Origin: Promethearchaeota archaeon
Lineage (GTDB): Archaea > Asgardarchaeota > Lokiarchaeia > Sigyniarchaeales > SOKP01
Direction: 5' to 3'
Length of the DNA stretch: 31,570 nt
Assembly: GCA_011364975.1 (NCBI GenBank)
Contig: RDOE01000040.1
Location: 1-31,570, forward strand
A program made the translations under genes and the position numbers. The notes below the pieces were generated by a model that was not told the DNA's origin, made no database searches, and saw only the letters and a program-made list of their open reading frames with translations. Shown here one piece after another: positions 633-12,954 of the stretch; the stretch's first letter is position 1, and each line of letters opens with the position of its first letter.

Positions 633-678
633 TTTTAATCACGAAGTTATTATAAAATTTCTCTAAAAAGTGAAATTT

Positions 679-1305
679 ATGGTTGAAAATATAGCAGACA
701 AATTCGAAAAGACAATGAAAAAAGGATTCGTTAATGTTTTTGTACTTTTAGTTTTAAACAAGGAACCAACTCACGGGTATCAAATTAAAAAGTTGATAGA
801 GGAGCGCACATTTGGAGTTTGGAGCCCCACAGATTCAACTATGTACACGATTCTTAAAGATTTACGAGATAAAGAGTTGATAAGACAAAGAAATCCTCAG
901 GATCCTGATGAGTCAAAGAAAGTATATGAACTTACACAAAAAGGAAAAACAATGCTAGATTTAATGCTACAAAGAGAAAGAGAAATGCGAGAATCGTTGA
1001 GGGCAATAATTTTTTCTACAACTGATACCGATGATGCATTTATGGAAGAAGGGATTCAAAACTTTATTTTACGTGGACCTAAATTTCCAGGACCTCCGAT
1101 GCATGGTCCTCATATGAAAGGTCCATTTATGGGTCAATTTAAAGGGGATTTTATGGAGCGAATTAAAGATATGCCTAAAGATGAACAATTAAAAGTCATG
1201 AACTTTCAAAAGCAGTTTGTTAGTAAACAAATTATGCATTTAACTCAACGATTAGAAGATATTGACAAATTTATATCAAAACTAGAATCTGATATTACAA
1301 TCTAA
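679..1305 (+). CDS. PadR-family transcriptional regulator
   Basis: KGFVNVFVLLVL..PTHGYQI..WSPTDSTMYTILKDL..KKVYELTQKG winged helix, with a C-terminal coiled coil. ATG at 679 preferred over GTG at 670. Confidence 0.9.
   Translation: MVENIADKFEKTMKKGFVNVFVLLVLNKEPTHGYQIKKLIEERTFGVWSPTDSTMYTILKDLRDKELIRQRNPQDPDESKKVYELTQKGKTMLDLMLQREREMRESLRAIIFSTTDTDDAFMEEGIQNFILRGPKFPGPPMHGPHMKGPFMGQFKGDFMERIKDMPKDEQLKVMNFQKQFVSKQIMHLTQRLEDIDKFISKLESDITI
1075..1134 (+). repeat. 4 x 15-nt imperfect tandem repeat encoding GPxxx pentapeptides inside PadR
   Basis: ggacctaaatttcca / ggacctccgatgcat / ggtcctcatatgaaa / ggtccatttatgggt = GPKFP GPPMH GPHMK GPFMG. Confidence 0.7.
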
Positions 1306-1343
1306 ACTATATTTAAAAAAATCTAAAAAAAATTAAAAAAATC

Positions 1344-2405
1344 ATGTCAGAAATAGTAATAAAACTGGAGAATTTAACTAAAAAATTTGGTAACTTTACC
1401 GCTGTAAATAGTATCAATCTTGAAGTCTGTCGAGGCGAGACTATAGGACTCGTTGGTCCGAATGGTGCTGGAAAAACAACAACAATCAAGATGATTGCTA
1501 AAATTCTTAGACCAAATTCAGGAAGGATTTTAATCAGAACCAATCACAGTGAGTTAAGAAATTTAGAAGATGTATCTAGTACCATTAGTCAAATGGGATT
1601 TTTAATTGATATCCCAAACTTCTATAACATGACCGCTTATGAATTACTAAAATATTTTGCTAAGATTCAGAAATATCCAAAAGATAAGATTGATGATAGA
1701 ATTGATGAACTCTTGAACCTTTTTAAGCTTTCTGAATGGAAATATGAAAAGGTAAAAAATTTTTCAAAAGGAATGACTCAAAAACTAGGAGTTATACAAG
1801 CGATTATACACGATCCTGAAATCATTATTCTTGATGAGCCTCAAACGGGATTGGACCCTTTAGCACGTATCGAAATACGACGATATATACGAGAACTCCA
1901 ATCACAAGGAAAGACTATATTTGTTGCATCTCACATGCTTTATGAAATATCTGAAGTGTGTGATAAAATAGCTTTGATAAATTATGGACAAATAATAGGT
2001 TTTGATACTGTTGAGAACTTAGCACTTAAATTAAGAACAAGTATTTTAAATTGTATCCTACTTAAACCTTTATCAGCTGAGAACTTACAACCATTACTCA
2101 CACGAATGAGGGAAAAGTTATATCCTTACTTAGACCAAAATTTAGATCCTAAGGTATCTGCAATCCCAATACGATATAAACCTGAAAAGCAGGAGTTAAA
2201 AATCTATTATGATGGAAAAGCAGAATCTAGAGGTCAAATTCTTAAAATCCTAATTAAGGAATTTGAATCTGACTTTACGGTAACATCATTTACACAACCA
2301 AAAACTTCTCAATTAGAGATGGTATATTCAGAAATGGTGAAAAATAATGTACCAGAGGGGACTCAAAATATAAAAGGAGGAAGTTTACAAAATGAGAGAC
2401 AATAA
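1344..2405 (+). CDS. ABC-2 type exporter ATP-binding subunit
   Basis: Walker A GPNGAGKTT, signature FSKGM, Walker B IIILDE, H-loop ASH, and an extended C-terminal domain. Confidence 0.95.
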   Translation: MSEIVIKLENLTKKFGNFTAVNSINLEVCRGETIGLVGPNGAGKTTTIKMIAKILRPNSGRILIRTNHSELRNLEDVSSTISQMGFLIDIPNFYNMTAYELLKYFAKIQKYPKDKIDDRIDELLNLFKLSEWKYEKVKNFSKGMTQKLGVIQAIIHDPEIIILDEPQTGLDPLARIEIRRYIRELQSQGKTIFVASHMLYEISEVCDKIALINYGQIIGFDTVENLALKLRTSILNCILLKPLSAENLQPLLTRMREKLYPYLDQNLDPKVSAIPIRYKPEKQELKIYYDGKAESRGQILKILIKEFESDFTVTSFTQPKTSQLEMVYSEMVKNNVPEGTQNIKGGSLQNERQ

Positions 2406-3246
2406 TGAAAACGGTATCGGAATAAAACCAATTATCGATACGATGTTTTTCGAGATGAAAAAACAAAAAAAGAAGTTCTATTTCTTTTTTATTGTTGCAA
2501 TTTTGGTTGATTTGCTGGTTTGTTATTTACTGCAATTAATTCCGGGTAATGTTCTATCAGACACTCAAGCAGGGTTCTTTAGTACTGGATTAAATTTTAT
2601 TTCCTTTTTGACTTTATTCGCAGCGTGCTTATTTTTTTCGGGAATAATTTGTTCTGAATTTGATAAGAAGACAGGATTTATTCTATTTCCCAAAATTAAT
2701 AAGTACAAATTAATCCTCGGAAAATATCTTGGAAATTTAATACTAGTGGTTGCCATTGTTACAATATATTACTTTATACTCGGTTTATTTGGATTCTATT
2801 ATTATGGGGGTCCTATTAATGTCAGAATCTTTTATTCATATGGATTTGCAATTTTATATGTAATAGCATTAAGTAGTTTTGTCACACTCTTTAGCTCTTT
2901 TCTTAGAAGTGAGACAATAACTATTATCATTTCTTTAATTATACTTTTAATAGGACTTAATATTGCAGATCAGATAATTACATTAATATTTAAAGACGCG
3001 TTTGAACCATTATATTCCCTATCATATTTGAGCAACCTAATAACCTCAGTTTTGGAAAATCCTTTTCCTAACCCAAGATATGTTGAATTTTCATTTGGGG
3101 GAATGGGACCTGGAGGTTTTGGAGGAAATTTCACATTTGGTACTTGGATAACTCCTAGTATTGAAATGGGAACTACATTGTTAATAGTATACATTGTAGC
3201 ATTTTTTGCATTAGCAGCATTACTATTTAAAAGGAGGCAATTGTGA
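2392..3246 (+). CDS. ABC-2 type exporter permease
   Basis: About 6 TM helices and the EFDKKTG..P....LILGKY motif. Overlaps the ATPase stop (translational coupling). Confidence 0.9.
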   Translation: MRDNNENGIGIKPIIDTMFFEMKKQKKKFYFFFIVAILVDLLVCYLLQLIPGNVLSDTQAGFFSTGLNFISFLTLFAACLFFSGIICSEFDKKTGFILFPKINKYKLILGKYLGNLILVVAIVTIYYFILGLFGFYYYGGPINVRIFYSYGFAILYVIALSSFVTLFSSFLRSETITIIISLIILLIGLNIADQIITLIFKDAFEPLYSLSYLSNLITSVLENPFPNPRYVEFSFGGMGPGGFGGNFTFGTWITPSIEMGTTLLIVYIVAFFALAALLFKRRQL

Positions 3247-3248
3247 GT

Positions 3249-4220
3249 ATGAGAATCCATAAAAATAATATTAAAACGAAAGTTTTCAGCTTGCTTTTAC
3301 TGGGCGTAATTGTTTTGACAGTGTTTCCGTTTACAGTTATAGGCTCTACAACTTATCAAACAACTTTAACAAAAGGAACTGAAATTTATATTGTAGATCA
3401 CTATGATGAAGAGGCATGGAAATCTACAGTTAATTCAATTTCTACACCCAATGATTGGTTTAAGGGAAATGTTAGCTTAGTTGATGCTAAAAGTAAAATA
3501 ACTCTAAAGGGATATGTTTTTACTACATGGAATACTTATGATGTATTAACATCAATATTTATGCCCGAATATTTTACTACTCAAGAAATTTATACCCTTA
3601 TAGGAATAATGAATCTGCAAGGATACAATGAAACTACTATTAATTCAAACTATAATGAGAGCTTTAAATTATGGTATGGGATTAGATCGGTATGGAATTT
3701 TACAGACAGTGATTATGAAGAACTACCAAGCTATACGGACGGTGTAATTGTACTTCAGAATCCTTTAGATTATAAAAAAATGTTGGATGATTACACTAAT
3801 TTATCAGTAGAACTAAATGGAAATCCATTTATACAATTTTCAGGATATTCTTTTCCAAATATTACCCCAGATCAATTTCTCTGGCAATTAGCTTTAAATG
3901 GATTAGCAATTGCAGACCCTCAAGCAGAATATTTAACAGAATTAATCAATGAAATGGGACCTGAAAACGCATCTGCAACCGAAACAACACTAATTTTCGA
4001 GCGTTATGGAGTTACAGATTATAATGTCGAAATTGAATACGGACCTAAAGGAATGATGTCTAGTTTTTTAGTAAAAGATAGTGGTGATACAATAATATTC
4101 CGATTGATTAGTACTAATTCAGATTGGATATTTTTTACAGTCCTCATTATAGTTAGCGCGTCAGTGGGATTACTTATAGCCTTTATGATTGTCAGAAGTC
4201 GGAAGCTAAAAAGACGTTAA
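3249..4220 (+). CDS. Secreted, C-terminally membrane-anchored hypothetical glycoprotein
   Basis: N-terminal signal-like helix, 7 NxS/T sequons, C-terminal TM followed by RSRKLKRR. Start (GTG 3243 or ATG 3249) is coupled to the permease stop. Confidence 0.8.
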   Translation: MRIHKNNIKTKVFSLLLLGVIVLTVFPFTVIGSTTYQTTLTKGTEIYIVDHYDEEAWKSTVNSISTPNDWFKGNVSLVDAKSKITLKGYVFTTWNTYDVLTSIFMPEYFTTQEIYTLIGIMNLQGYNETTINSNYNESFKLWYGIRSVWNFTDSDYEELPSYTDGVIVLQNPLDYKKMLDDYTNLSVELNGNPFIQFSGYSFPNITPDQFLWQLALNGLAIADPQAEYLTELINEMGPENASATETTLIFERYGVTDYNVEIEYGPKGMMSSFLVKDSGDTIIFRLISTNSDWIFFTVLIIVSASVGLLIAFMIVRSRKLKRR

Positions 4221-4295: not shown

Positions 4296-6905
4296 TTATT
4301 TTACATCTTCTCCTGTATTATTAAGCTCTTCTTTATTAGGGAAAGAATATCCCGACGGATAAAGATTAGTAATCTTACGAGGAGTGGTATTATAATCATG
4401 TTTTTCCATTTTCTTATAAAGTTTGTTAATATTATAATCCATTGAAAATTCCATAATTTCTCCAGCTAAAAGAATGTATGAAAAAGCTGTTAAGAAAGGA
4501 ATTCCTGCAAAGAACACTATAATCATTAGCATACCAAAAATATAATTTAGGATTTCTTCACCACTAAAAAATCCTGAAAAGTCAACGGTAGCTAAGAAGC
4601 CGACTAATGTAATAATCGCAGAAAGTCCAGCAATTCCTTTTATTAAAGATTGTGCCCAAACACTGATAGGTTCTATATCTGCAGGTTGGCGATATTTCTT
4701 TGATTGCTTAAAGTAAACAACACCAGCATCATCGAGTAGGAAATTACCAGAAATAAAAAACGAAAACACAATAAATGCAAGAATCATAGGAAAGATACAG
4801 CAAAGCATATAACCGTTCATAAATTGAAAAAATTCAGTACTTCCGAAGACCTCAAAATCTTGTGGAAATCCTAAAATAGGTGTCAAAGCATTATATGCGT
4901 AAAACCCAGTTGCAATTGAAAGAAGTAATGGTAAAACGACTCGTTTAAGTTGAATTAAAGTGCCAATTTCTTTCCTTTCTTCCATGTCCAGTACAATTAT
5001 ATCAGTATTATAGTGTCTGGAAATTTTAAAGAATAAACGCCGGAGTTTAACAAATAAGAAGGCAAAACTAGGAGCAAAACGGTTATAAAGAGCAGCTGTT
5101 AGAGGCAACATTCCATACCACGCTATAGTAACTATTAAAAATACATTAGTAATCGTTGTCATATTATCACCACTTATTAAAGTTCGATTGAAAACGTTCA
5201 GTTGTAATAAAAATAGAGCAAACGCTACTGTCATCAGTCCTATTGTAATAGTATTCACAACTATCGTCAACTTATGTTCTTTAATTCCTTCTCTCTTATA
5301 ACTGACTTTCCTCCCCTTTATAGCAAATATTAATAAGCCGATTCCTAAAAATACTACTAATGTTATAAATACGGGAAATCCCCAAGAAAAGCTGGAAGAA
5401 AGCCATAAACCTAACGGTTTTGCTGAAGATAACGCTAATATCCTATCGTTGCTTGGAAACGAAAAATCCTTTTTTCCATCGCCATCCAAATCAGGAATGG
5501 TTAATATGTTATACCTTGCATCGTATTCTATATTTAGAATCGCTAGTTTTTGGTTCTCTGGAACGCTTGTAACTGTTATTCGACGCACCTCACTTGTTGA
5601 GAAAATAGGCGTAATCCTTTCAGTAACAATAAGTTCCTCAATTCGGTCTCCGTTTAAATCTTCGTGAATAACAAAAGCATTCTTAGTTTCATCTCTGGAT
5701 TCGTCTAAAAGCCTCCAAATTATTTCTTCAGAAGTTTCCGTAAGAGAATAAACAGCCAATTGAACCTCGCGTATTTCGGTACTTGGAGTATATTTATCAC
5801 TTTTTACCAAAATTAAGGCTTCTTTATCCAATGGATCTGTACCTATTACATCAATCCAATGATTTGAATAATTTCCCGCGATTTGAAAGTTTCTAATAAT
5901 GGTTCCGTCAATACCACTCAAAATTGAAATATTGCCTTCATAATTAACCGTGAGAATCTCTGAATATCCGTCATCGTTTAAATCCTCTATAACTTCATGG
6001 CCCCTTACGCCATTAATAACAGTATTATTATATATTTCTTCAAAGAAATTAGATTCTTCCATGTTATAAAGAAAGAGTGAGTTTTCGTCTACAAATAGAA
6101 GAGTTTCTTCGGTACCATAAGGAAATTTTGTTAGGACGGGTATTTCATTCTCTGTTCCTAGCCACCTTTGGGCAAAGTAAAACGAATCGTATTGGGTACC
6201 ATTTAGATAATAACTAGATATATTGCAATAGTATTCGTTCGTAGTATTCACTTTAAGTTCGCATTCAATAAAGACGAATTCAGGACGATAGTCTCCGAGA
6301 TCATCCAAAAAGACTATATCATGAACATAAAAATTGGAATAGTTGTGAATCTCGTCGGTTGCATTTAGAATAAATTCTCCATCAGAGCCATTAATAATGA
6401 CATTTCTGTAGTCATTAGGAAAGATTTCAGGGATTTGCTCACCAGGATTATAAGGATGATCTATCCAGTCCGGTCCAACTGTAGCAATATCTGCCATATA
6501 TTCACTAATACCATCTCCAGTTAAATCCATAATTTTAAACAATCTTTTAACGGGGTTATCAACAATTTGTTCCCATAACTTTACTCCAGTTAAACCATCT
6601 ATGGCATATATTCCTCCAAATTGGGGAATGTCGTTTAGTAATCCCTCTTCTCTGTGAGTATCACGCCTGTTAACATCAGTATACGAAATAATTTCGGGAA
6701 ATCCGTCCTCGTTAACATCATCACCTACTAAAGCGTACATATCCATAGAATTTACGCTATTTAACTCGCTCCATATCCATCCCGGTTGAAGTTCCATCTG
6801 AGTAACAAATATAATCCCAAGACTACCAAAAATGATAAATGAAACCGCAAGCAGCACATAATTAACAGGATGTGATTTTTCCTTTTTACGCTTTTGTCCA
6901 GTCAT
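4296..6905 (-). CDS. Membrane protein with FG-GAP/VCBS-like beta-propeller ectodomain and about 7 C-terminal TM helices
   Basis: N-terminal TM/signal anchor. Six DxxxDxxxE/D Ca-binding-type loops (DVNEDGFPE, DLTGDGISE, DLGDYRPE, DLNDDGYSE, DLNGDRIEE, DLDGDGKKD). PQQ-like AIDGLTGVKLW. Seven hydrophobic segments after about residue 505. Confidence 0.8.
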   Translation of the reverse strand: MTGQKRKKEKSHPVNYVLLAVSFIIFGSLGIIFVTQMELQPGWIWSELNSVNSMDMYALVGDDVNEDGFPEIISYTDVNRRDTHREEGLLNDIPQFGGIYAIDGLTGVKLWEQIVDNPVKRLFKIMDLTGDGISEYMADIATVGPDWIDHPYNPGEQIPEIFPNDYRNVIINGSDGEFILNATDEIHNYSNFYVHDIVFLDDLGDYRPEFVFIECELKVNTTNEYYCNISSYYLNGTQYDSFYFAQRWLGTENEIPVLTKFPYGTEETLLFVDENSLFLYNMEESNFFEEIYNNTVINGVRGHEVIEDLNDDGYSEILTVNYEGNISILSGIDGTIIRNFQIAGNYSNHWIDVIGTDPLDKEALILVKSDKYTPSTEIREVQLAVYSLTETSEEIIWRLLDESRDETKNAFVIHEDLNGDRIEELIVTERITPIFSTSEVRRITVTSVPENQKLAILNIEYDARYNILTIPDLDGDGKKDFSFPSNDRILALSSAKPLGLWLSSSFSWGFPVFITLVVFLGIGLLIFAIKGRKVSYKREGIKEHKLTIVVNTITIGLMTVAFALFLLQLNVFNRTLISGDNMTTITNVFLIVTIAWYGMLPLTAALYNRFAPSFAFLFVKLRRLFFKISRHYNTDIIVLDMEERKEIGTLIQLKRVVLPLLLSIATGFYAYNALTPILGFPQDFEVFGSTEFFQFMNGYMLCCIFPMILAFIVFSFFISGNFLLDDAGVVYFKQSKKYRQPADIEPISVWAQSLIKGIAGLSAIITLVGFLATVDFSGFFSGEEILNYIFGMLMIIVFFAGIPFLTAFSYILLAGEIMEFSMDYNINKLYKKMEKHDYNTTPRKITNLYPSGYSFPNKEELNNTGEDVK

Positions 6906-7030
6906 TACTATTTCGACTTTAAATTAATTTAATTACTAATATATACAATTGCAGAATTTTAAATCTTAACAAACTGTATAATTCTACTATAAAAAGCAGT
7001 TCTCAAAATAAACTTAAATTACTAAATATA

Positions 7031-7055
7031 AGAAAAAGTAAAAAATAAAAAAAAA
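7031..7055 (-). terminator. Oligo(T) terminator of the padR-hsp20 transcript
   Basis: Long A-tracts on + (T-tracts on -) about 105 nt downstream of the hsp20 stop. Confidence 0.5.
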
Positions 7056-7068
7056 TTACATGTTAATT

Positions 7069-7150
7069 GGGGTGCTTTAGATTTTAGTTTATCGATTGAC
7101 TACAGATGGTCGAACAAACATAATAATCTGAAGCGCTCCTCTTTTTGTTT
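7069..7150 (+). ncRNA. Candidate structured RNA (long G-U-rich hairpin followed by a U-tract)
   Basis: GGGGTGCTTTAGATT (7069-7083) pairs 15/15 with AATCTGAAGCGCTCC (7125-7139) using 3 G-U pairs. Inner stems GTTT/AAAC and TCGATTG/TGGTCGA. Followed by TCTTTTTGTTT. Confidence 0.35.
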
Positions 7151-7159
7151 CTAAAGCGT

Positions 7160-7642
7160 TTAATTGCTGCCTTCTTCGCCGATGTTAATATTTTTCGCTG
7201 GCTTTTTTCCCATTGAAATCCTTAACAGACCATTAGCCATTTTTGAAGTTATTGTGTTTTCATCCGCATCGGAGGGAAGTGGAATGTCCATGTTTACATC
7301 AATAAACGTGAACCCTTTCCATGGAGAACAACATTCTTGGCCCTCCTTTTTTGATTCCTTATTTTCAGATTCGGGGACTTTTGGTTTTTTAGCTGAAATA
7401 TTCAAGTTTTTATCAAGTAGTGAAACACTTACCTCTTCTTTTGTACGGCCTGGCAATGGGACTGTTATTAAATAGCTATCTCCTAAATCTTCGACATTAT
7501 GAGGAATATAACTTCCCATAAAGTTTCCCATAAAATGATGTGCCATCCGCCTCATTCGAGCAACATCTCTCGGCGTGAAAGAAAAGCAACCATACATACC
7601 TTTTGGCCCATGAACTGATCCATGATGTCTCTCATCACACAT
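7160..7642 (-). CDS. Hsp20/alpha-crystallin small heat-shock protein
   Basis: YLITVPLPGRTKEEVSVSL, LPSDADENTITSKMANGLLRI and a C-terminal IxI motif (INI). GAGG RBS upstream. Confidence 0.92.
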   Translation of the reverse strand: MCDERHHGSVHGPKGMYGCFSFTPRDVARMRRMAHHFMGNFMGSYIPHNVEDLGDSYLITVPLPGRTKEEVSVSLLDKNLNISAKKPKVPESENKESKKEGQECCSPWKGFTFIDVNMDIPLPSDADENTITSKMANGLLRISMGKKPAKNINIGEEGSN

Positions 7643-7706: not shown

Positions 7707-8393
7707 TTAATCTCCTTCGTTATCATTTTCTTTCCTATCTTCATCGAAATCCCGCAAAAATTCTTCATCATCGACAATATCTATAGTCTTCATTTTCTTC
7801 TCTCTTTCATTTTTGAGCTTTTCAAACAACTCTTGAAAATATGATAATCGCTTTTCGATTTCCTCTAATCGGTGAGATAATCTACCTTTTGAAAATGTTA
7901 GATCATGAATTATGCGTTTAATTTGCTCTATATTATTCAGAGAACAATCCTCTTCATCGATTTCTCTCATTTTAGGTCTACAATGGAAAGGAAAACATGA
8001 CATGGCTTCATTTATGCTTTCTTCGTTAGGAACCCAGGTTTGGATTATTGTGCTTATGTAATCTCCAAGAGTACCCATACTTGACGCTAAATTATCTTTC
8101 AAAACCTCATGTAATCTTTCTTTACCTTCCGTAGTAATTCTATAAATCTTCAGTTCTCGATTATTTTTTAGAATTTTTTCAATTGTAAGAAAATTTCTTT
8201 CTGTCAACTGATTCAATAAAGGATATATTGTACCCGGGGTAGCTCTCCATAATCTGCGAAATTTTGAATTAATTTCTTGTATGAGATCATAACCAGATAT
8301 TCCGTCAAAATTCTTTATGATAGAAAGGACAAGAATATCTAATCCGGATATTTGACCTGATTTATGCCCATAAAATCGCTTTCCAAAAAACAT
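7707..8393 (-). CDS. PadR-family transcriptional regulator
   Basis: ILVLSII..ISGYDLIQEI..WRATPGTIYPLLNQL..KIYRITTEG, with a C-terminal coiled coil and acidic tail. GGTGA RBS at 8408-8404. Confidence 0.92.
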   Translation of the reverse strand: MFFGKRFYGHKSGQISGLDILVLSIIKNFDGISGYDLIQEINSKFRRLWRATPGTIYPLLNQLTERNFLTIEKILKNNRELKIYRITTEGKERLHEVLKDNLASSMGTLGDYISTIIQTWVPNEESINEAMSCFPFHCRPKMREIDEEDCSLNNIEQIKRIIHDLTFSKGRLSHRLEEIEKRLSYFQELFEKLKNEREKKMKTIDIVDDEEFLRDFDEDRKENDNEGD

Positions 8394-8419: not shown

Positions 8420-8500
8420 ATATATCTAGAGCGATATATTATGTAACCTAAGAAAACACAAGTATAAAAATGTATCGGCTGGGATATATGATAATATATC
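8420..8500 (-). promoter_or_regulatory. Promoter of padR-hsp20 with two ATATATC-N6-GATATAT operators
   Basis: ATATATC-TAGAGC-GATATAT (8420-8439), ATGTATC-GGCTGG-GATATAT (8470-8489), an extra half-site at 8494-8500, and minus-strand TATA TTTTTATA at 8470-8463. Confidence 0.75.
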
Positions 8501-9084: not shown

Positions 9085-12000
9085 TTAATAGTTCTGTTTC
9101 TTAAATTGTTCTTTTTTACGTTTGTAAAAAACAATAGAAATTACTATGAATTCCACACTGATCATAAAAAATACAATCCCTGGTTCTAAACCTATTACTT
9201 CTTCAATTTCCCCTGTATAACGAATTCCAGCACTGAAAAGTGGTGATACTTCAGGTATTATTTGGCTGTCTCTAAGTTGAATGAAAACAAATTTCACACC
9301 TTCGCCTGTTGAGAGTAACATTTGAAATTCTGGGATAAAAGAAATCCAAGAGGCGCTAATTAAGTCTTTTATATCTTCCGCATAACGCATATGCGTAGGT
9401 GTAAAAGCATTGATGGAACTTTCGTCATTTCTTGAGATACTAATACTAATGTTTACTAAATTTGTTTTTGTAGTCTTACTGCCATTATTAATCTTTACAC
9501 TAGCTTCTGCAGAAAGTACATTTTCTTTTGGAATTGCTTTATAAGCTCTCGTAAACCCTGTTTCATTAAAGAGTGCGGTATCTGCTAAAAAGCGATAATA
9601 ATAGGTTTGATAGTTCGTTACGCTTGTATCGTTATAGGTTTCAATGTATTTCGAACCGTAAATTATCGAATATCCAAAGACAGGATTCATAGAACGATAT
9701 ATGTAAAGGTTATTATAATTGACTGTAGACGCATTCGGCATCATCATATAAACAAATTTATTGCCAGGATACACTTGAACACTAGGAAATTTCTGCATTG
9801 AGTCATCTGATGGATCCAATGGATTCAATCCGAAATAGACCTCTGAATTATCCCCTTGACCTCCATAATCAGTATCCGAATTGAGTGGATCAGTTCCATG
9901 GAAAAACTCATTAATATTGGTAAGCCAATCTTGATCAGGATCTCCACTTGCGCCATGTTCTCCTATAGCTGATAGATGGTTTAATCCATAGTATTTTTCC
10001 CAATTATCAGTAAGTCCATCCCCATCAGTGTCTATTATCTGCTGCCTTTGACCTTGCAGGTAAAATGCACCAGTTTTAATTCTCATAAAGGATCTTCCCT
10101 TATTATCGGTTCCTGTAGAATTAATCAAAAACTGATAAGAACCCTCTTCAGAAGTAGCAGTATATAAGTTTCCATAAATGCCATCATTTGGTAGTGAATC
10201 TCCATGATTTCCATCGTCATATAAGGGAATTTGAAATAGCGTATTATGACTCTTGTAGCCCGGAGGAGTGACGGTCATATGAACCTCTGCATTTCTAATC
10301 TCTTTAGTATCGGTTAAACTAATAAGGATAGGGATTTGAGAGCCTTTTTTCTCGGTATTTCCCCACCCAGGTGAGATAATACCATTTGGGGGCGTAAGTA
10401 AAGTCATTGTAAGATACGTATGGGCAGCACCCTCAACAAAGTATAATAATTCGCTACTAGAAGCACTCGTCGTGATAGTAATTGTCCATTCACCCGTTTG
10501 AGGATAATCCTTTTGATAAATCCTATGTCCCATGCCAGAAACGTCATTTGTATATGTAAAGCTTACAGGATTATTACTTGGGTCTCGCAATTGAATGGAA
10601 GTAGGTGGTTGAGATGCATTATAATGAACCACAAATTCTATTCTGTCCATATCATCTGTAACTTTTAGTTTAAATTGTTTAGCAGTTCCGGGATTAACTT
10701 CTCCACGTTCATAATAAAATCTTTCCATATGGCGCACTTTTTCAAAAATCGCACGGTATAATTCTGCTAAATCATTTGGGATGTCCCCACTAGATGGATC
10801 AAAACAATGGAAGTAAGTTCCTCCAGTATCTGCCGCGAGTTCCTGCATTTGTTCATAAGCAGCATCTGCCCCGATTGTAATAACATGAATGACTGTTCCA
10901 TTTCCCAAAATATGTGGTAAGACCTCGTAAATCATTGGAGCTGTATTTTCCATCCCATCACTTAACAATACAATATGATCGGGGTAATCAGAAATCCCTT
11001 TTAAATACAATTCATTTTGAGATTTAAATAAACTATCCCCAATAGAAGTTGAACCCCCAGCAGATATGGATTCAATTTGAGATATCGCATTACTTCGATT
11101 ACCGGGTGTAAGTTTCGCGAGTCCATGAAGGAGAGTCGCTATGGATTCAAATTGAATAACTCCTAATTGATCCTCACTTAAAAAGCTATTTACGAATAAT
11201 TTACCTGCAGATTTAGCGGCAAGAATCTTATTTGAAGATATCATACTGCCAGATCTATCTATATTTACCATGATATCATAATATGAGGCACCATAATTTA
11301 CACAGGCTGGTTCCATATCTGTATCCACCACGTTAATATCAGCATCCACTAAATCAACATCAAGCTTATAAAACCCATTTGCAGTTTGATTTGGGGCTTG
11401 AATTTGTAAGAAATATTTACCATATACATCCACGGCTGTAAGTACGTCGGCATCTATTCCACCTACTCGAGATATAAAATTTTCCGTGAAAAATCCATGC
11501 ACTGGAAGATCTTGGCGATAGTAAATATTTACAATAGCTATAAATTTTTCCGGAGCATTATGAGGACCAACTCTCGCTTGAGCAGGCTCAGGAAGATTCT
11601 TTGGGTATTCAATGTTGATAAAAGGAGTTCCCGCTTCGATTTCATACTCGTACATTGCAGGATTAGCCACAACATTTTCAAGACCAGCAACTATTATACA
11701 TATCTTATCATAATTATTGTTTATTATTGCTCTTCTAAAATCCTTAGATTCTACAGTGTAGGAATATTCTACATCATTTCCATTTGAACATATTAACGCA
11801 TAAAAAAGCTTATTCGTAGTTGACTGGTTAAATTGAATCGAGATTACTTCAACGCCGGGATCGATGTTGACTTCATAGTACTTATTTGCCCAACTGGTTA
11901 CATTTTCATCTAGATCGGTCAATGATCCTCCTGGTAATAAGGTTGGTATCGGATCTATTTCTTTTGAAATAGTACCATAATTCCCAGAGCCATCGATTTC

Positions 12001-12954
12001 ATCATCGTCAATAAATGTCCATTCAGAAGGAACTGAAGCTGCATTAAAGTCTTTTGTATATATGGCGATGGAAAAATCTTCAAAAATATCTTCAAATGAA
12101 GTTCCGGGACTTATATAATCTAAAGCATTATTCAACATTGTAACTCCATCTCCACCGCTAGGATTTGCATCACTACTCCAATATGTAGTGATAGCATCAA
12201 CACCATAATCGGGATCAGTAGTATCTGTACCGAATTGCTCACAATAATACTGCCAAAATAAGCATGACGAATAACTAATCGTTGTCAGATCAGATTTATG
12301 ATTTTCCGATAAATATCCTTGAGATTGCCTAACAAAGCTACTTCCTGCCTCAGTTCCATCAGCATGATCAAGCCAATCGGAAAGCTTATCTTGAATCATA
12401 CGAGCTTGACCTTCCCTTACCCATTTACTAGCAGGTGTACCTGTGTGAGCATATTGGCATATATGAAATAGTTCGTGCCCCGCTACCTTTAAGGGTTCAT
12501 GATCCGCAGGAAATCCTTGAGTAATATAGTCAGGATAAACTCCTGTTTTAAAATTACTTTCTCGATCAGGACAACAAGCCCAACCATTATATTCACCAAC
12601 CGTATTTTCTACTGTCACTTCGATGGGAGGCTCATCTGCATCTAACATTGGATCTGGAAAATTCCAAGATCCAACTAAAATACTATATGCGTCCTCTAAT
12701 ACTTCAGCATAATCTTCGACTTCAGCTTGAGTCACGAAATTTGTATCCCAAGTATCCACCCGAAAATTACCTAAACTTGAATCAACAGTAGGCCCTGGAG
12801 CATTTGTAGATAATCCTTTAAAATTATTAGTTTCAGCTTGGATGTTTAAGTTTAGACTGTTAATCAAGAGTATTACAATAAAGCTAATTAAAACAATGGA
12901 TCTTAAATTTTTAATTAAGATTGAAATAGATACATTTTGAATTCTATATACCAT
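9085..12954 (-). CDS. Large surface protein: HExxH zinc metallopeptidase + VWA + CLCA/choice-of-anchor-X-like beta domain + TSP3-like Ca repeats + FN3-like domain + TM anchor
   Basis: Signal peptide. GHELFHICQ..WVREGQA. MIDAS residues DRSGS/TSIG/LLSDG. LYDDGNHGDSLPNDGIYG. DTDGDGLTDNWE, DPDQDWLTN, DTDYGGQGDNSE. YNDTSVTNYQTYYYR. C-terminal TM followed by KRKK. Confidence 0.88.
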   Translation of the reverse strand: MVYRIQNVSISILIKNLRSIVLISFIVILLINSLNLNIQAETNNFKGLSTNAPGPTVDSSLGNFRVDTWDTNFVTQAEVEDYAEVLEDAYSILVGSWNFPDPMLDADEPPIEVTVENTVGEYNGWACCPDRESNFKTGVYPDYITQGFPADHEPLKVAGHELFHICQYAHTGTPASKWVREGQARMIQDKLSDWLDHADGTEAGSSFVRQSQGYLSENHKSDLTTISYSSCLFWQYYCEQFGTDTTDPDYGVDAITTYWSSDANPSGGDGVTMLNNALDYISPGTSFEDIFEDFSIAIYTKDFNAASVPSEWTFIDDDEIDGSGNYGTISKEIDPIPTLLPGGSLTDLDENVTSWANKYYEVNIDPGVEVISIQFNQSTTNKLFYALICSNGNDVEYSYTVESKDFRRAIINNNYDKICIIVAGLENVVANPAMYEYEIEAGTPFINIEYPKNLPEPAQARVGPHNAPEKFIAIVNIYYRQDLPVHGFFTENFISRVGGIDADVLTAVDVYGKYFLQIQAPNQTANGFYKLDVDLVDADINVVDTDMEPACVNYGASYYDIMVNIDRSGSMISSNKILAAKSAGKLFVNSFLSEDQLGVIQFESIATLLHGLAKLTPGNRSNAISQIESISAGGSTSIGDSLFKSQNELYLKGISDYPDHIVLLSDGMENTAPMIYEVLPHILGNGTVIHVITIGADAAYEQMQELAADTGGTYFHCFDPSSGDIPNDLAELYRAIFEKVRHMERFYYERGEVNPGTAKQFKLKVTDDMDRIEFVVHYNASQPPTSIQLRDPSNNPVSFTYTNDVSGMGHRIYQKDYPQTGEWTITITTSASSSELLYFVEGAAHTYLTMTLLTPPNGIISPGWGNTEKKGSQIPILISLTDTKEIRNAEVHMTVTPPGYKSHNTLFQIPLYDDGNHGDSLPNDGIYGNLYTATSEEGSYQFLINSTGTDNKGRSFMRIKTGAFYLQGQRQQIIDTDGDGLTDNWEKYYGLNHLSAIGEHGASGDPDQDWLTNINEFFHGTDPLNSDTDYGGQGDNSEVYFGLNPLDPSDDSMQKFPSVQVYPGNKFVYMMMPNASTVNYNNLYIYRSMNPVFGYSIIYGSKYIETYNDTSVTNYQTYYYRFLADTALFNETGFTRAYKAIPKENVLSAEASVKINNGSKTTKTNLVNISISISRNDESSINAFTPTHMRYAEDIKDLISASWISFIPEFQMLLSTGEGVKFVFIQLRDSQIIPEVSPLFSAGIRYTGEIEEVIGLEPGIVFFMISVEFIVISIVFYKRKKEQFKKQNY

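Follow-up and report, generated by a model that had tools for sequence, protein, structure and literature searches.

Comparison with described systems

Asgard archaea rely on close cell-cell contact with partner organisms, and their surface proteins are, to our knowledge, almost entirely uncharacterised. In the Wntless and GOST-type layout, a first transmembrane (TM) helix is followed by a luminal domain and then by seven helices, the seven-helix (7TM) part of Wntless being similar to G-protein-coupled receptors (GPCRs). Bacterial 7TMR-DISM-type receptors join an extracellular domain to a 7TM part. The present analysis concerns a gene on contig RDOE01000040.1 of a Promethearchaeota archaeon (assembly GCA_011364975.1), positions 1 to 31,570 of which (i.e. 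the whole analysed stretch of 31,570 nucleotides) are referred to as the window. The encoded protein, P0001, was found to contain a new six-helix membrane module that occurs in three architectures, lies outside Pfam and NCBIfam and is joined here to an integrin-type Ca-loop propeller. The family is a concrete candidate for an Asgard protein that acts in contact, adhesion or surface processing. The gene and its main parts, for which an AlphaFold2 (AF2) model was among the evidence, are:

4296..6905, minus strand: whole gene, an open frame whose translation is 869 residues (P0001) plus a stop codon
6798..6866, minus strand: TM0, an N-terminal signal-anchor helix (residues 14-36) with a K/R-rich cytoplasmic N terminus before it, placed by hydropathy, AF2, conservation and the matching helix in propeller-less forms
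5382..6797, minus strand: extracellular FG-GAP-type beta-propeller (residues 37-508) with six Ca-type loops, nine N-x-S/T sequons and 34 strands
4446..5381, minus strand: TM1-TM7, seven further helices (residues 509-820), placed by hydropathy, AF2 and alignments with minimal and short forms

P0001 resembles integrins in the type of propeller repeat only, and adhesion GPCRs and Wntless in gross layout only. As in integrin alpha, FG-GAP repeats with D-x-N-x-D-G-x-x-D/E Ca-type hairpin loops are present, but the propeller probably has eight blades as compared to the seven of integrins, and P0001 has eight TM helices, with neither thigh and calf domains nor a single C-terminal TM helix; a beta-subunit is not known for it, although no search aimed at a partner was made. 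Eight blades are also found in BamB and in the polysaccharide lyase family 11 (PL11) enzymes YesW and YesX. In contrast to these systems, P0001 is a polytopic protein whose propeller is inserted after one TM helix and before the next. Like adhesion GPCRs, P0001 has a big adhesive-type ectodomain ahead of seven helices, the last of which leads into the cytoplasm; however, it has no GAIN/GPS domain, possesses an extra conserved N-terminal TM helix and a conserved unit of six helices, and lacks a fold match. Likewise, the seven N-out/C-in helices of a GPCR- or rhodopsin-like fold differ from the eight N-in/C-in helices of P0001. The gross topology of Wntless and GOST proteins (i.e. an N-in anchor, a large outside domain, seven helices and C-in) is common to P0001, but the P0001 model fits no GPCR-like chain and has a propeller in place of the beta-sandwich as its outside domain. 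A relation in sequence to Wntless/GOST was not found, 107 HMMER matches including no non-Asgard name where names were looked up. P0001 shares with 7TMR-DISM receptors a prokaryotic origin and an outside domain before a helical bundle, but differs in helix count and in having no cytoplasmic output domain. Pfam searches of P0001 at E ≤10 gave no GPCR family and neither 7TMR-DISM_7TM nor DISMED, and no GAIN/GPS domain was detected by Pfam.

Among the papers listed in searches of the literature on Asgard integrin, FG-GAP and 7TM proteins, none describes the family; the supplementary tables of eukaryotic signature proteins (ESPs) of Liu 2021 and Eme 2023 lay outside that search and may list this family or a related one. 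The main text of the Liu 2021 preprint contains no mention of the searched features. A different, integrin-beta-4-like family is described in PMC9258230, which cites Liu et al. 2021 for 'integrin repeat-containing ESPs', and a 2026 preprint (10.64898/2026.10.28.762692) refers to the ESP families of Eme 2023 and Liu 2021 as including '7TM proteins'.

Topology of P0001

The gene was present as a single copy (n=1) in its source genome. An earlier note, made from the sequence alone, had read its product as an integrin-like propeller followed by a 7TM domain of N-out/C-in topology, laid out like an adhesion GPCR. Hydropathy (Kyte-Doolittle, 19-residue window) gave seven peaks within residues 500-818 (i.e. 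511-529, 548-566, 588-606, 656-674, 700-718, 754-772 and 789-807), which begin at the residues named in that note and coincide with the helices of a full-length AF2 model (predicted local distance difference test score (pLDDT) 85.2; predicted template-modelling score (pTM) 0.80). An extra hydrophobic segment was observed by the same method at the N terminus, behind MTGQKRKKEK (peak at residues 17-35, score 2.58). This segment, TM0, forms a helix of 35 residues in the AF2 model (residues 2-36; block pLDDT 82-95). Conservation, charge and sequon statistics were obtained from an alignment of 64 homologues, in which mean column conservation was 0.62 for TM0, 0.54-0.67 for the other helices and 0.43 for the ectodomain; the membrane part as a whole (0.54-0.78) was better conserved than the ectodomain. 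A cleaved signal peptide is unlikely on the basis of the conservation of TM0 and its 35-residue helix. Hydropathy, AF2 and conservation thus give a count of eight helices rather than seven and an N terminus on the inside; the out-to-in run of the seven later helices and the cytoplasmic C terminus of the original proposal were retained.

Charges followed the positive-inside pattern. The mean excess of K+R over D+E was +2.2 for the N terminus, -47.6 for the ectodomain, +3.5 for loop 1, -0.4 for loop 2, +6.0 for loop 3, -1.3 for loop 4 and -2.4 for loop 6, in agreement with the alternation of loop charges noticed earlier. Sequons averaged 9.8 in the ectodomain and 1.4 in loop 2; P0001 itself has nine in the ectodomain and, in loop 2, NRT at residue 573 and NMT at residue 581. 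These charge and sequon statistics fit an N-in/C-in topology. P0001 is, with strong support, an integral membrane glycoprotein with eight predicted TM helices, an inside N terminus, an outside propeller and an inside C terminus. Conservation in >150 full-length homologues excludes chance as the source of these features.

An FG-GAP-type propeller outside the membrane

An ectodomain with six Ca-type loops and many sequons had been recognised from the sequence, and all six loops proved to be present and conserved over the homologues. The loops (D...D...[DE], i.e. D-x-N-x-D-G-x-x-D/E) start at residues 63, 127, 201, 308, 416 and 472, and their Asp residues include D308 (64/64 homologues), D205 (61/64) and D472 (59/64). 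Pfam detected FG-GAP in P0001 at 23.0 bits against a cutoff of 22.1. When compared to Protein Data Bank (PDB) sequences, a full-length profile of 70 homologues matched the FG-GAP 'hemolysin-related protein' 6mlt (E 2e-8), integrin alpha-4 (3.8e-4), YesW (0.0015) and integrin alpha-V (about 0.004-0.012).

The full-length AF2 model is all-beta over residues 38-492, and the propeller leads straight into TM1. Foldseek matched the ectodomain to propellers, including the designed Cake9/10 (8e-8), BamB (4e-7), YesX (6.2e-7) and integrin alpha-V (6om1; 1.4e-6), and the best-covering targets included the eight-bladed BamB, Tako8 and YesX. These matches support the assignment of the ectodomain as a Ca-loop propeller of FG-GAP/integrin-alpha type, as the earlier note had proposed. 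By our own reading of the 34 modelled strands, with four per blade, the propeller probably has eight blades; the Ca-type loops would connect the first two strands in each of blades 1, 2, 3, 5, 7 and 8, and the N-terminal strand 38-45 would close the propeller ring.

A six-helix core in three architectures

The cytoplasmic parts of the membrane domain are:

4941..5084, minus strand: cytoplasmic loop 3 (residues 608-655), with an extension of the TM3 helix, a beta-strand (632-639) with D640, and then R655
4650..4751, minus strand: cytoplasmic loop 5 (residues 719-752), LLDDAGVVY...DIEPISVW, with a beta-hairpin (729-735 and 743-746)
4299..4445, minus strand: cytoplasmic C-terminal tail (residues 821-869), in which an amphipathic helix (822-835) and a short strand (841-842) are modelled and the motif N..KLY..MEK..Y(D/N)TTPR is conserved

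Two propeller-less types of family member were found. Short forms (about 390-500 residues, typically ~440) have a K/R-rich N terminus and two helices with a short connecting loop, followed by the helix and motif series of P0001, and end in a related D-P-R-(I/V)-V-x-I-x-L tail. Minimal forms (289-330 residues; eight genomes) have six hydrophobic helices and align to residues 545-836 of P0001 (phmmer E 1.5e-14 to 3.9e-10). They carry the motifs WLL-E/M-D-T/S-G, ADIEG.GNWY and LKG(F/Y)AG, share P803 and replace the first Asp of the DD pair by E, M or Q. As the ~300-residue forms carry only TM2-TM7 and the ~440-residue forms add a TM0/TM1 hairpin, there is strong support for TM2-TM7 being the conserved six-helix core of the superfamily, with TM0/TM1 as an added hairpin and the propeller inserted in its outer loop. 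The 7TM receptor unit suggested earlier is replaced by this six-helix core plus two-helix hairpin.

Conservation peaks in loop 5, whose mean column value of 0.78 was the highest of all regions. Across 21 sequences from the three architectures, D726, G728, G760 and P803 (P0001 numbering) were invariant and R655, L724 and K756 nearly so. D726 and G728 were also invariant in all four family alignments, and R655 in three with near-invariance in the fourth. The module signature was found as a WLL-x-D-x-G that closes TM5, a beta-hairpin, a K-G-x-x-G that opens TM6 and the conserved Pro within TM7.

In a tree built by IQ-TREE quick search from 84 sequences of the membrane domain, from which rows with <250 aligned residues had been excluded, the 13 minimal forms lay on one side of a branch with 99% support in the SH-like approximate likelihood-ratio test (SH-aLRT). 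Ten short forms made up one clade (100%) and P0001 fell inside a 34-member propeller clade (99%). The architecture label requires at least four changes on this tree, which does not resolve their direction. Two 'short' rows within propeller clades (i.e. P0159 and P0164) may be truncated gene calls; the start of P0159 is not M.

An AF2 model of residues 496-869, made from a 70-sequence alignment, reached a pLDDT of 90.1 and a pTM of 0.85. It contains a long TM3 helix (581-628), a small cytoplasmic sheet built from strands 632-639, 729-735, 743-746 and 841-842, and the amphipathic C-terminal helix (822-835). The earlier note had suggested comparing this part with GPCR and other 7TM folds; Foldseek against 350,542 PDB chains returned nothing at E ≤0.001 (best E 0.21), the listed chains (GPCRs, SecY, CTL1, NapA and others) having template-modelling scores (TM-scores) of 0.06-0.29. 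The best E-value of a membrane-only profile against PDB sequences was 0.31. Neither Pfam nor NCBIfam returned a family for the membrane part, the minimal forms or the short forms. A search of the ESM Atlas with residues 496-869 yielded nothing usable and, for a minimal form, only unnamed Asgard clusters were matched, the nearest named cluster being RcgA at a score of 0.76 (i.e. under the lead threshold). Internal repeats were not detected when TM2-3, TM4-5 and TM6-7 were compared with one another by hhalign (probability ≤4%). These results strongly support a core fold without a relative among solved structures and a module not in Pfam or NCBIfam. No cytoplasmic enzyme domain was found in P0001, in line with the absence of an enzymatic output domain noted before.

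Distribution of the family

A word-indexed search (7990 candidates scored) identified 158 proteins at E ≤0.001. Apart from P0001 itself, the best 120 of these were 43-79% identical to P0001, nearly all of ~860 residues, and covered 97-100% of it. Among the matches listed, all names were 'hypothetical protein' from Asgard-labelled metagenome-assembled genomes (Loki, Promethearchaeota, Heimdall, Hermod, Hod, Thor and Odin), consistent with the Asgard source predicted from the sequence. A HMMER scan of 1.84 billion representatives with residues 496-869 gave the 107 proteins mentioned above at E ≤0.001, in three groups of ~860 residues, 1000-1430 residues and 390-500 residues, the last with a match from about residue 40-60. 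Of ten that were looked up, five had organism names, all Asgard (Hodarchaeota, Sigynarchaeota and Promethearchaeota). A profile of the 21 sequences from the three architectures found 33 proteins; none had a Pfam domain and the given names were all Asgard (Thor, Sif, Loki and Promethearchaeota).

A survey of the phylum, as the earlier note had proposed, detected a match at E ≤1e-5 in 96 of 400 genomes. By family, matches occurred in 68 of 134 genomes of the source family and in 16 of 89 from three further families, the 16 shown all belonging to one family (f31) as frames of ~300-340 residues. With one genome per species, 60 loci were found, whose titles were Asgard or 'uncultured archaeon' except for one 3186-nucleotide contig labelled Bathyarchaeota. 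Judging from these labels, the family occurs almost only in Asgard archaea.

Upstream region and paralogue loci

The region before the propeller gene contains the following features:

6951..6968, minus strand: conserved TATA-like box TTAAGATTTAAAATTCTG, ~55 nucleotides upstream of the ATG, from 28 aligned HSP20-to-gene spacers
7160-7642, minus strand: HSP20, between PadR and the propeller gene and on the same strand
7707-8393, minus strand: PadR-family regulator (PadR2), upstream and on the same strand as the propeller gene

Of the 60 loci, 46 had >1.5 kb of upstream sequence, and in 32 of these PadR and HSP20 preceded the gene and were oriented as it is. Among the 32, the HSP20-to-gene gap measured 210-300 nucleotides in 25 cases and 2.2-2.6 kb in another four. 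Where the pair was lacking (14 loci), the genes were mostly divergent orthologues (25-48% identity), plus one fragment. The conserved adjacency of the pair is no more than a hint of a stress link. The conserved N terminus of HSP20 (MC..HHGP..GC) is rich in Cys and His, and an I-x-I motif lies at the C terminus; at 58-68% identity over 34 syntenic orthologues, HSP20 is more conserved than the propeller protein. The idea of PadR2 as an archaeal Phr-type heat-shock regulator gained no support, the PDB sequences matched being only bacterial PadR, AphA and Rv3488-type chains (E ≤0.001).

Directly after HSP20, the spacer (7040-7139, minus strand) contains a conserved inverted repeat, GGAGCGCTT(C/T)AGA (7127-7139) with TCTAAAGCACCCC (7069-7081), which encloses a variable insert of 20-55 nucleotides and is followed by a T-run (7040-7055). 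The repeat was present in 29 of 29 aligned spacers, with 94% of cells paired and hardly any covariation. Rfam gave nothing at or near the gathering score for this element, RNAalifold predicted no pairs, and the copy in the window folded no better than shuffles (z -0.93). The repeat probably either terminates the PadR-HSP20 unit or serves as a binding element for a protein. The TATA-like box TTAAGATTTAAAATTCTG is probably the promoter of the propeller gene itself. Upstream of the PadR gene, the palindromes ATATATC-N6-GATATAT and GATATAT-N4-ATATATC (8420-8439 and 8483-8500) each occur once in the window, as compared to 0.01 expected by chance, and are candidate PadR operators; they were not present upstream of the propeller gene. 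We read the propeller gene as separately transcribed because it has its own TATA-like box, a hairpin and T-run follow HSP20, and the PadR-side palindromes are not found before it.

Divergent paralogues occur in another family of the same order. Two of them, long forms of 1101-1122 residues, overlap ~770-residue NosD/right-handed beta-helix proteins by 4 nucleotides. These paralogues adjoin pectate-lyase-like (i.e. pectic-acid-lyase-like) and BNR-repeat proteins, and a third overlaps a thrombospondin type 3 (TSP3)-repeat protein. Such neighbours hint at polysaccharide handling. The minimal forms had no common gene context over eight loci. The paralogue loci are:

L070:1407-3743 (plus strand), L071:4428-6740 (minus strand), L071:6958-8958 and L072:3096-4115: NosD/beta-helix, pectic-acid-lyase-like and BNR loci of the paralogues

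Possible functions of the core and propeller

The reading that we prefer, tentatively and with somewhat more doubt than belief, is a contact sensor or adhesion anchor whose core acts via its cytoplasmic face and whose propeller adds Ca-dependent recognition outside. The working site of the core would be an invariant cytoplasmic-face cluster (D726-x-G728, R655, K756-G-x-x-G760 and D640/D743), seated on the small beta-sheet from loops 3 and 5 and the C-terminal tail, and this cluster might bind a cytosolic partner, an ion or a small ligand. The propeller would recognise an external glycan or protein in a Ca-dependent manner, and the whole protein would couple outside binding to the cytoplasmic site. 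In the modelled topology, D640, R655, D725/D726, D743, S748, W750 and K756 are predicted to come together at the cytoplasmic face. Support for such a site comes from the high conservation of loop 5, and for a surface or contact role from the paralogues that are translationally coupled to secreted-type NosD/beta-helix proteins and lie beside pectate-lyase-like and BNR proteins. Several observations weigh on the other side. The clustering was derived from topology and secondary structure only, and the invariant residues could be purely structural, e.g. salt bridges holding the small sheet. The core occurs without an ectodomain in the ~300-residue forms and therefore has a function of its own without an external sensor, a pattern more typical of a transporter or enzyme. 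The conserved PadR-HSP20 pair next to the gene is an indication of stress biology and not of adhesion, and no partner, ligand or ion was identified. Any likeness to integrins or adhesion receptors in the way of working would be one of layout at most, P0001 not being a GPCR homologue. A bolder form of the sensor proposal, in which the core is a new Asgard-only transmembrane coupling module and the propeller forms are integrin-like Ca-dependent receptors of cell-cell or cell-substrate contact signalling via the D726/R655/K756 face, is distinctly improbable; if true, it would mean that outside-in adhesion signalling was invented independently by archaea, in the lineage that is closest to eukaryotes.

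The occurrence of the core alone in ~300-residue proteins, as often observed with transport modules, also suits a transporter or channel in which the six helices would move an ion or small solute (perhaps an oligosaccharide) and the propeller would capture or process the external substrate. Conserved Pro and Gly residues within helices (P601, P659, G667, G757, G760 and P803) are in keeping with helices that move, the rhamnogalacturonan lyases YesW and YesX are among the eight-bladed FG-GAP propellers, and the paralogues lie in operons with NosD/beta-helix proteins and have pectate-lyase-like and BNR neighbours. However, the middle of the membrane lacks conserved charged or polar residues, the conserved polar ones being at the cytoplasmic interface, no internal repeat was detected, and SecY, NapA, CTL1 and TPT reached TM-scores of only 0.11-0.18, so that with no fold match we consider a transporter rather unlikely. 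The interfacial residues could instead be catalytic or Mg-binding, making the core a membrane-embedded enzyme for a lipid or lipid-linked substrate with the propeller as an accessory. In several polytopic transferases, e.g. those of the MraY/WecA and UbiA families, Mg is bound by Asp-rich motifs where helices end on the cytoplasmic side, and the invariant D726 and near-invariant R655 and K756 of the three architectures, together with the conservation peak in loop 5, may be compatible with such chemistry. Set against this are the lack of similarity to any enzyme family in sequence or fold, the E, M or Q at the first Asp of the DD pair in minimal forms and the very small size of the cytoplasmic parts, and an enzyme appears improbable.

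A static surface-coat or envelope protein, possibly within a heat or envelope stress regulon, would use the propeller to build a glycosylated surface and the membrane part only as an anchor. Whilst the very acidic, sequon-rich ectodomain and the PadR-HSP20 pair directly upstream on the same strand are consistent with this, eight helices and an invariant cytoplasmic motif are needless for an anchor, and conservation is higher in the membrane part than in the ectodomain. The gene is also preceded by a TATA-like box of its own, the conserved hairpin and T-run lie between it and HSP20, and the PadR-side palindromes do not occur upstream of it; a static coat is therefore considered quite unlikely. 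Far less credible than any of these is a 7TM receptor related to, or built like, adhesion GPCRs. Seven helices do follow the ectodomain with out-to-in polarity, and the full-length profile gave weak matches to 5-hydroxytryptamine (5-HT) receptors (E 0.0037-0.04), the membrane-only profile matching 5-HT1F at E 0.31 over TM1-TM3 only. Such weak hydrophobic matches are to be expected, as no kind of membrane chain is more frequent in the PDB than GPCRs. P0001 has eight helices in all and a core of six, Pfam shows neither a GPCR nor a GAIN family, and the GPCR chains listed by Foldseek have TM-scores of 0.11-0.29 with root-mean-square deviations of 14-27 Å. Homology to GPCRs was rejected on this evidence, and the tempting claim of an archaeal precursor of adhesion GPCRs is removed.

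Other neighbouring genes

Two further features flank these genes in the window:

670-4220, plus strand: operon of PadR, ABC ATPase, ABC-2 permease and a 325-residue sequon-rich protein, downstream of and convergent to the propeller gene
9085-12954, minus strand: 1289-residue protein with a von Willebrand factor A (VWA) domain and a bacterial TSP3 repeat, on the upstream side

The PadR/ABC operon recurs beside the orthologue in 14 of the 60 loci. The 1289-residue VWA protein is probably a surface protein; neither it nor a 118-residue protein had a match in the 60 loci. A Snf7 (ESCRT-III) gene (L068:3973-4359, minus strand) is the second gene away from a minimal six-helix form, a PfkB kinase gene separating the two, an arrangement seen in one of eight loci and probably incidental. 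Convergent to another family member is a gene (L078:4320-6443, plus strand) for a 707-residue protein that matches the Pfam adaptor-complex medium-subunit family PF00928 (E 6e-12) as well as DUF11, and that may represent a mu-homology-like domain in an Asgard genome.

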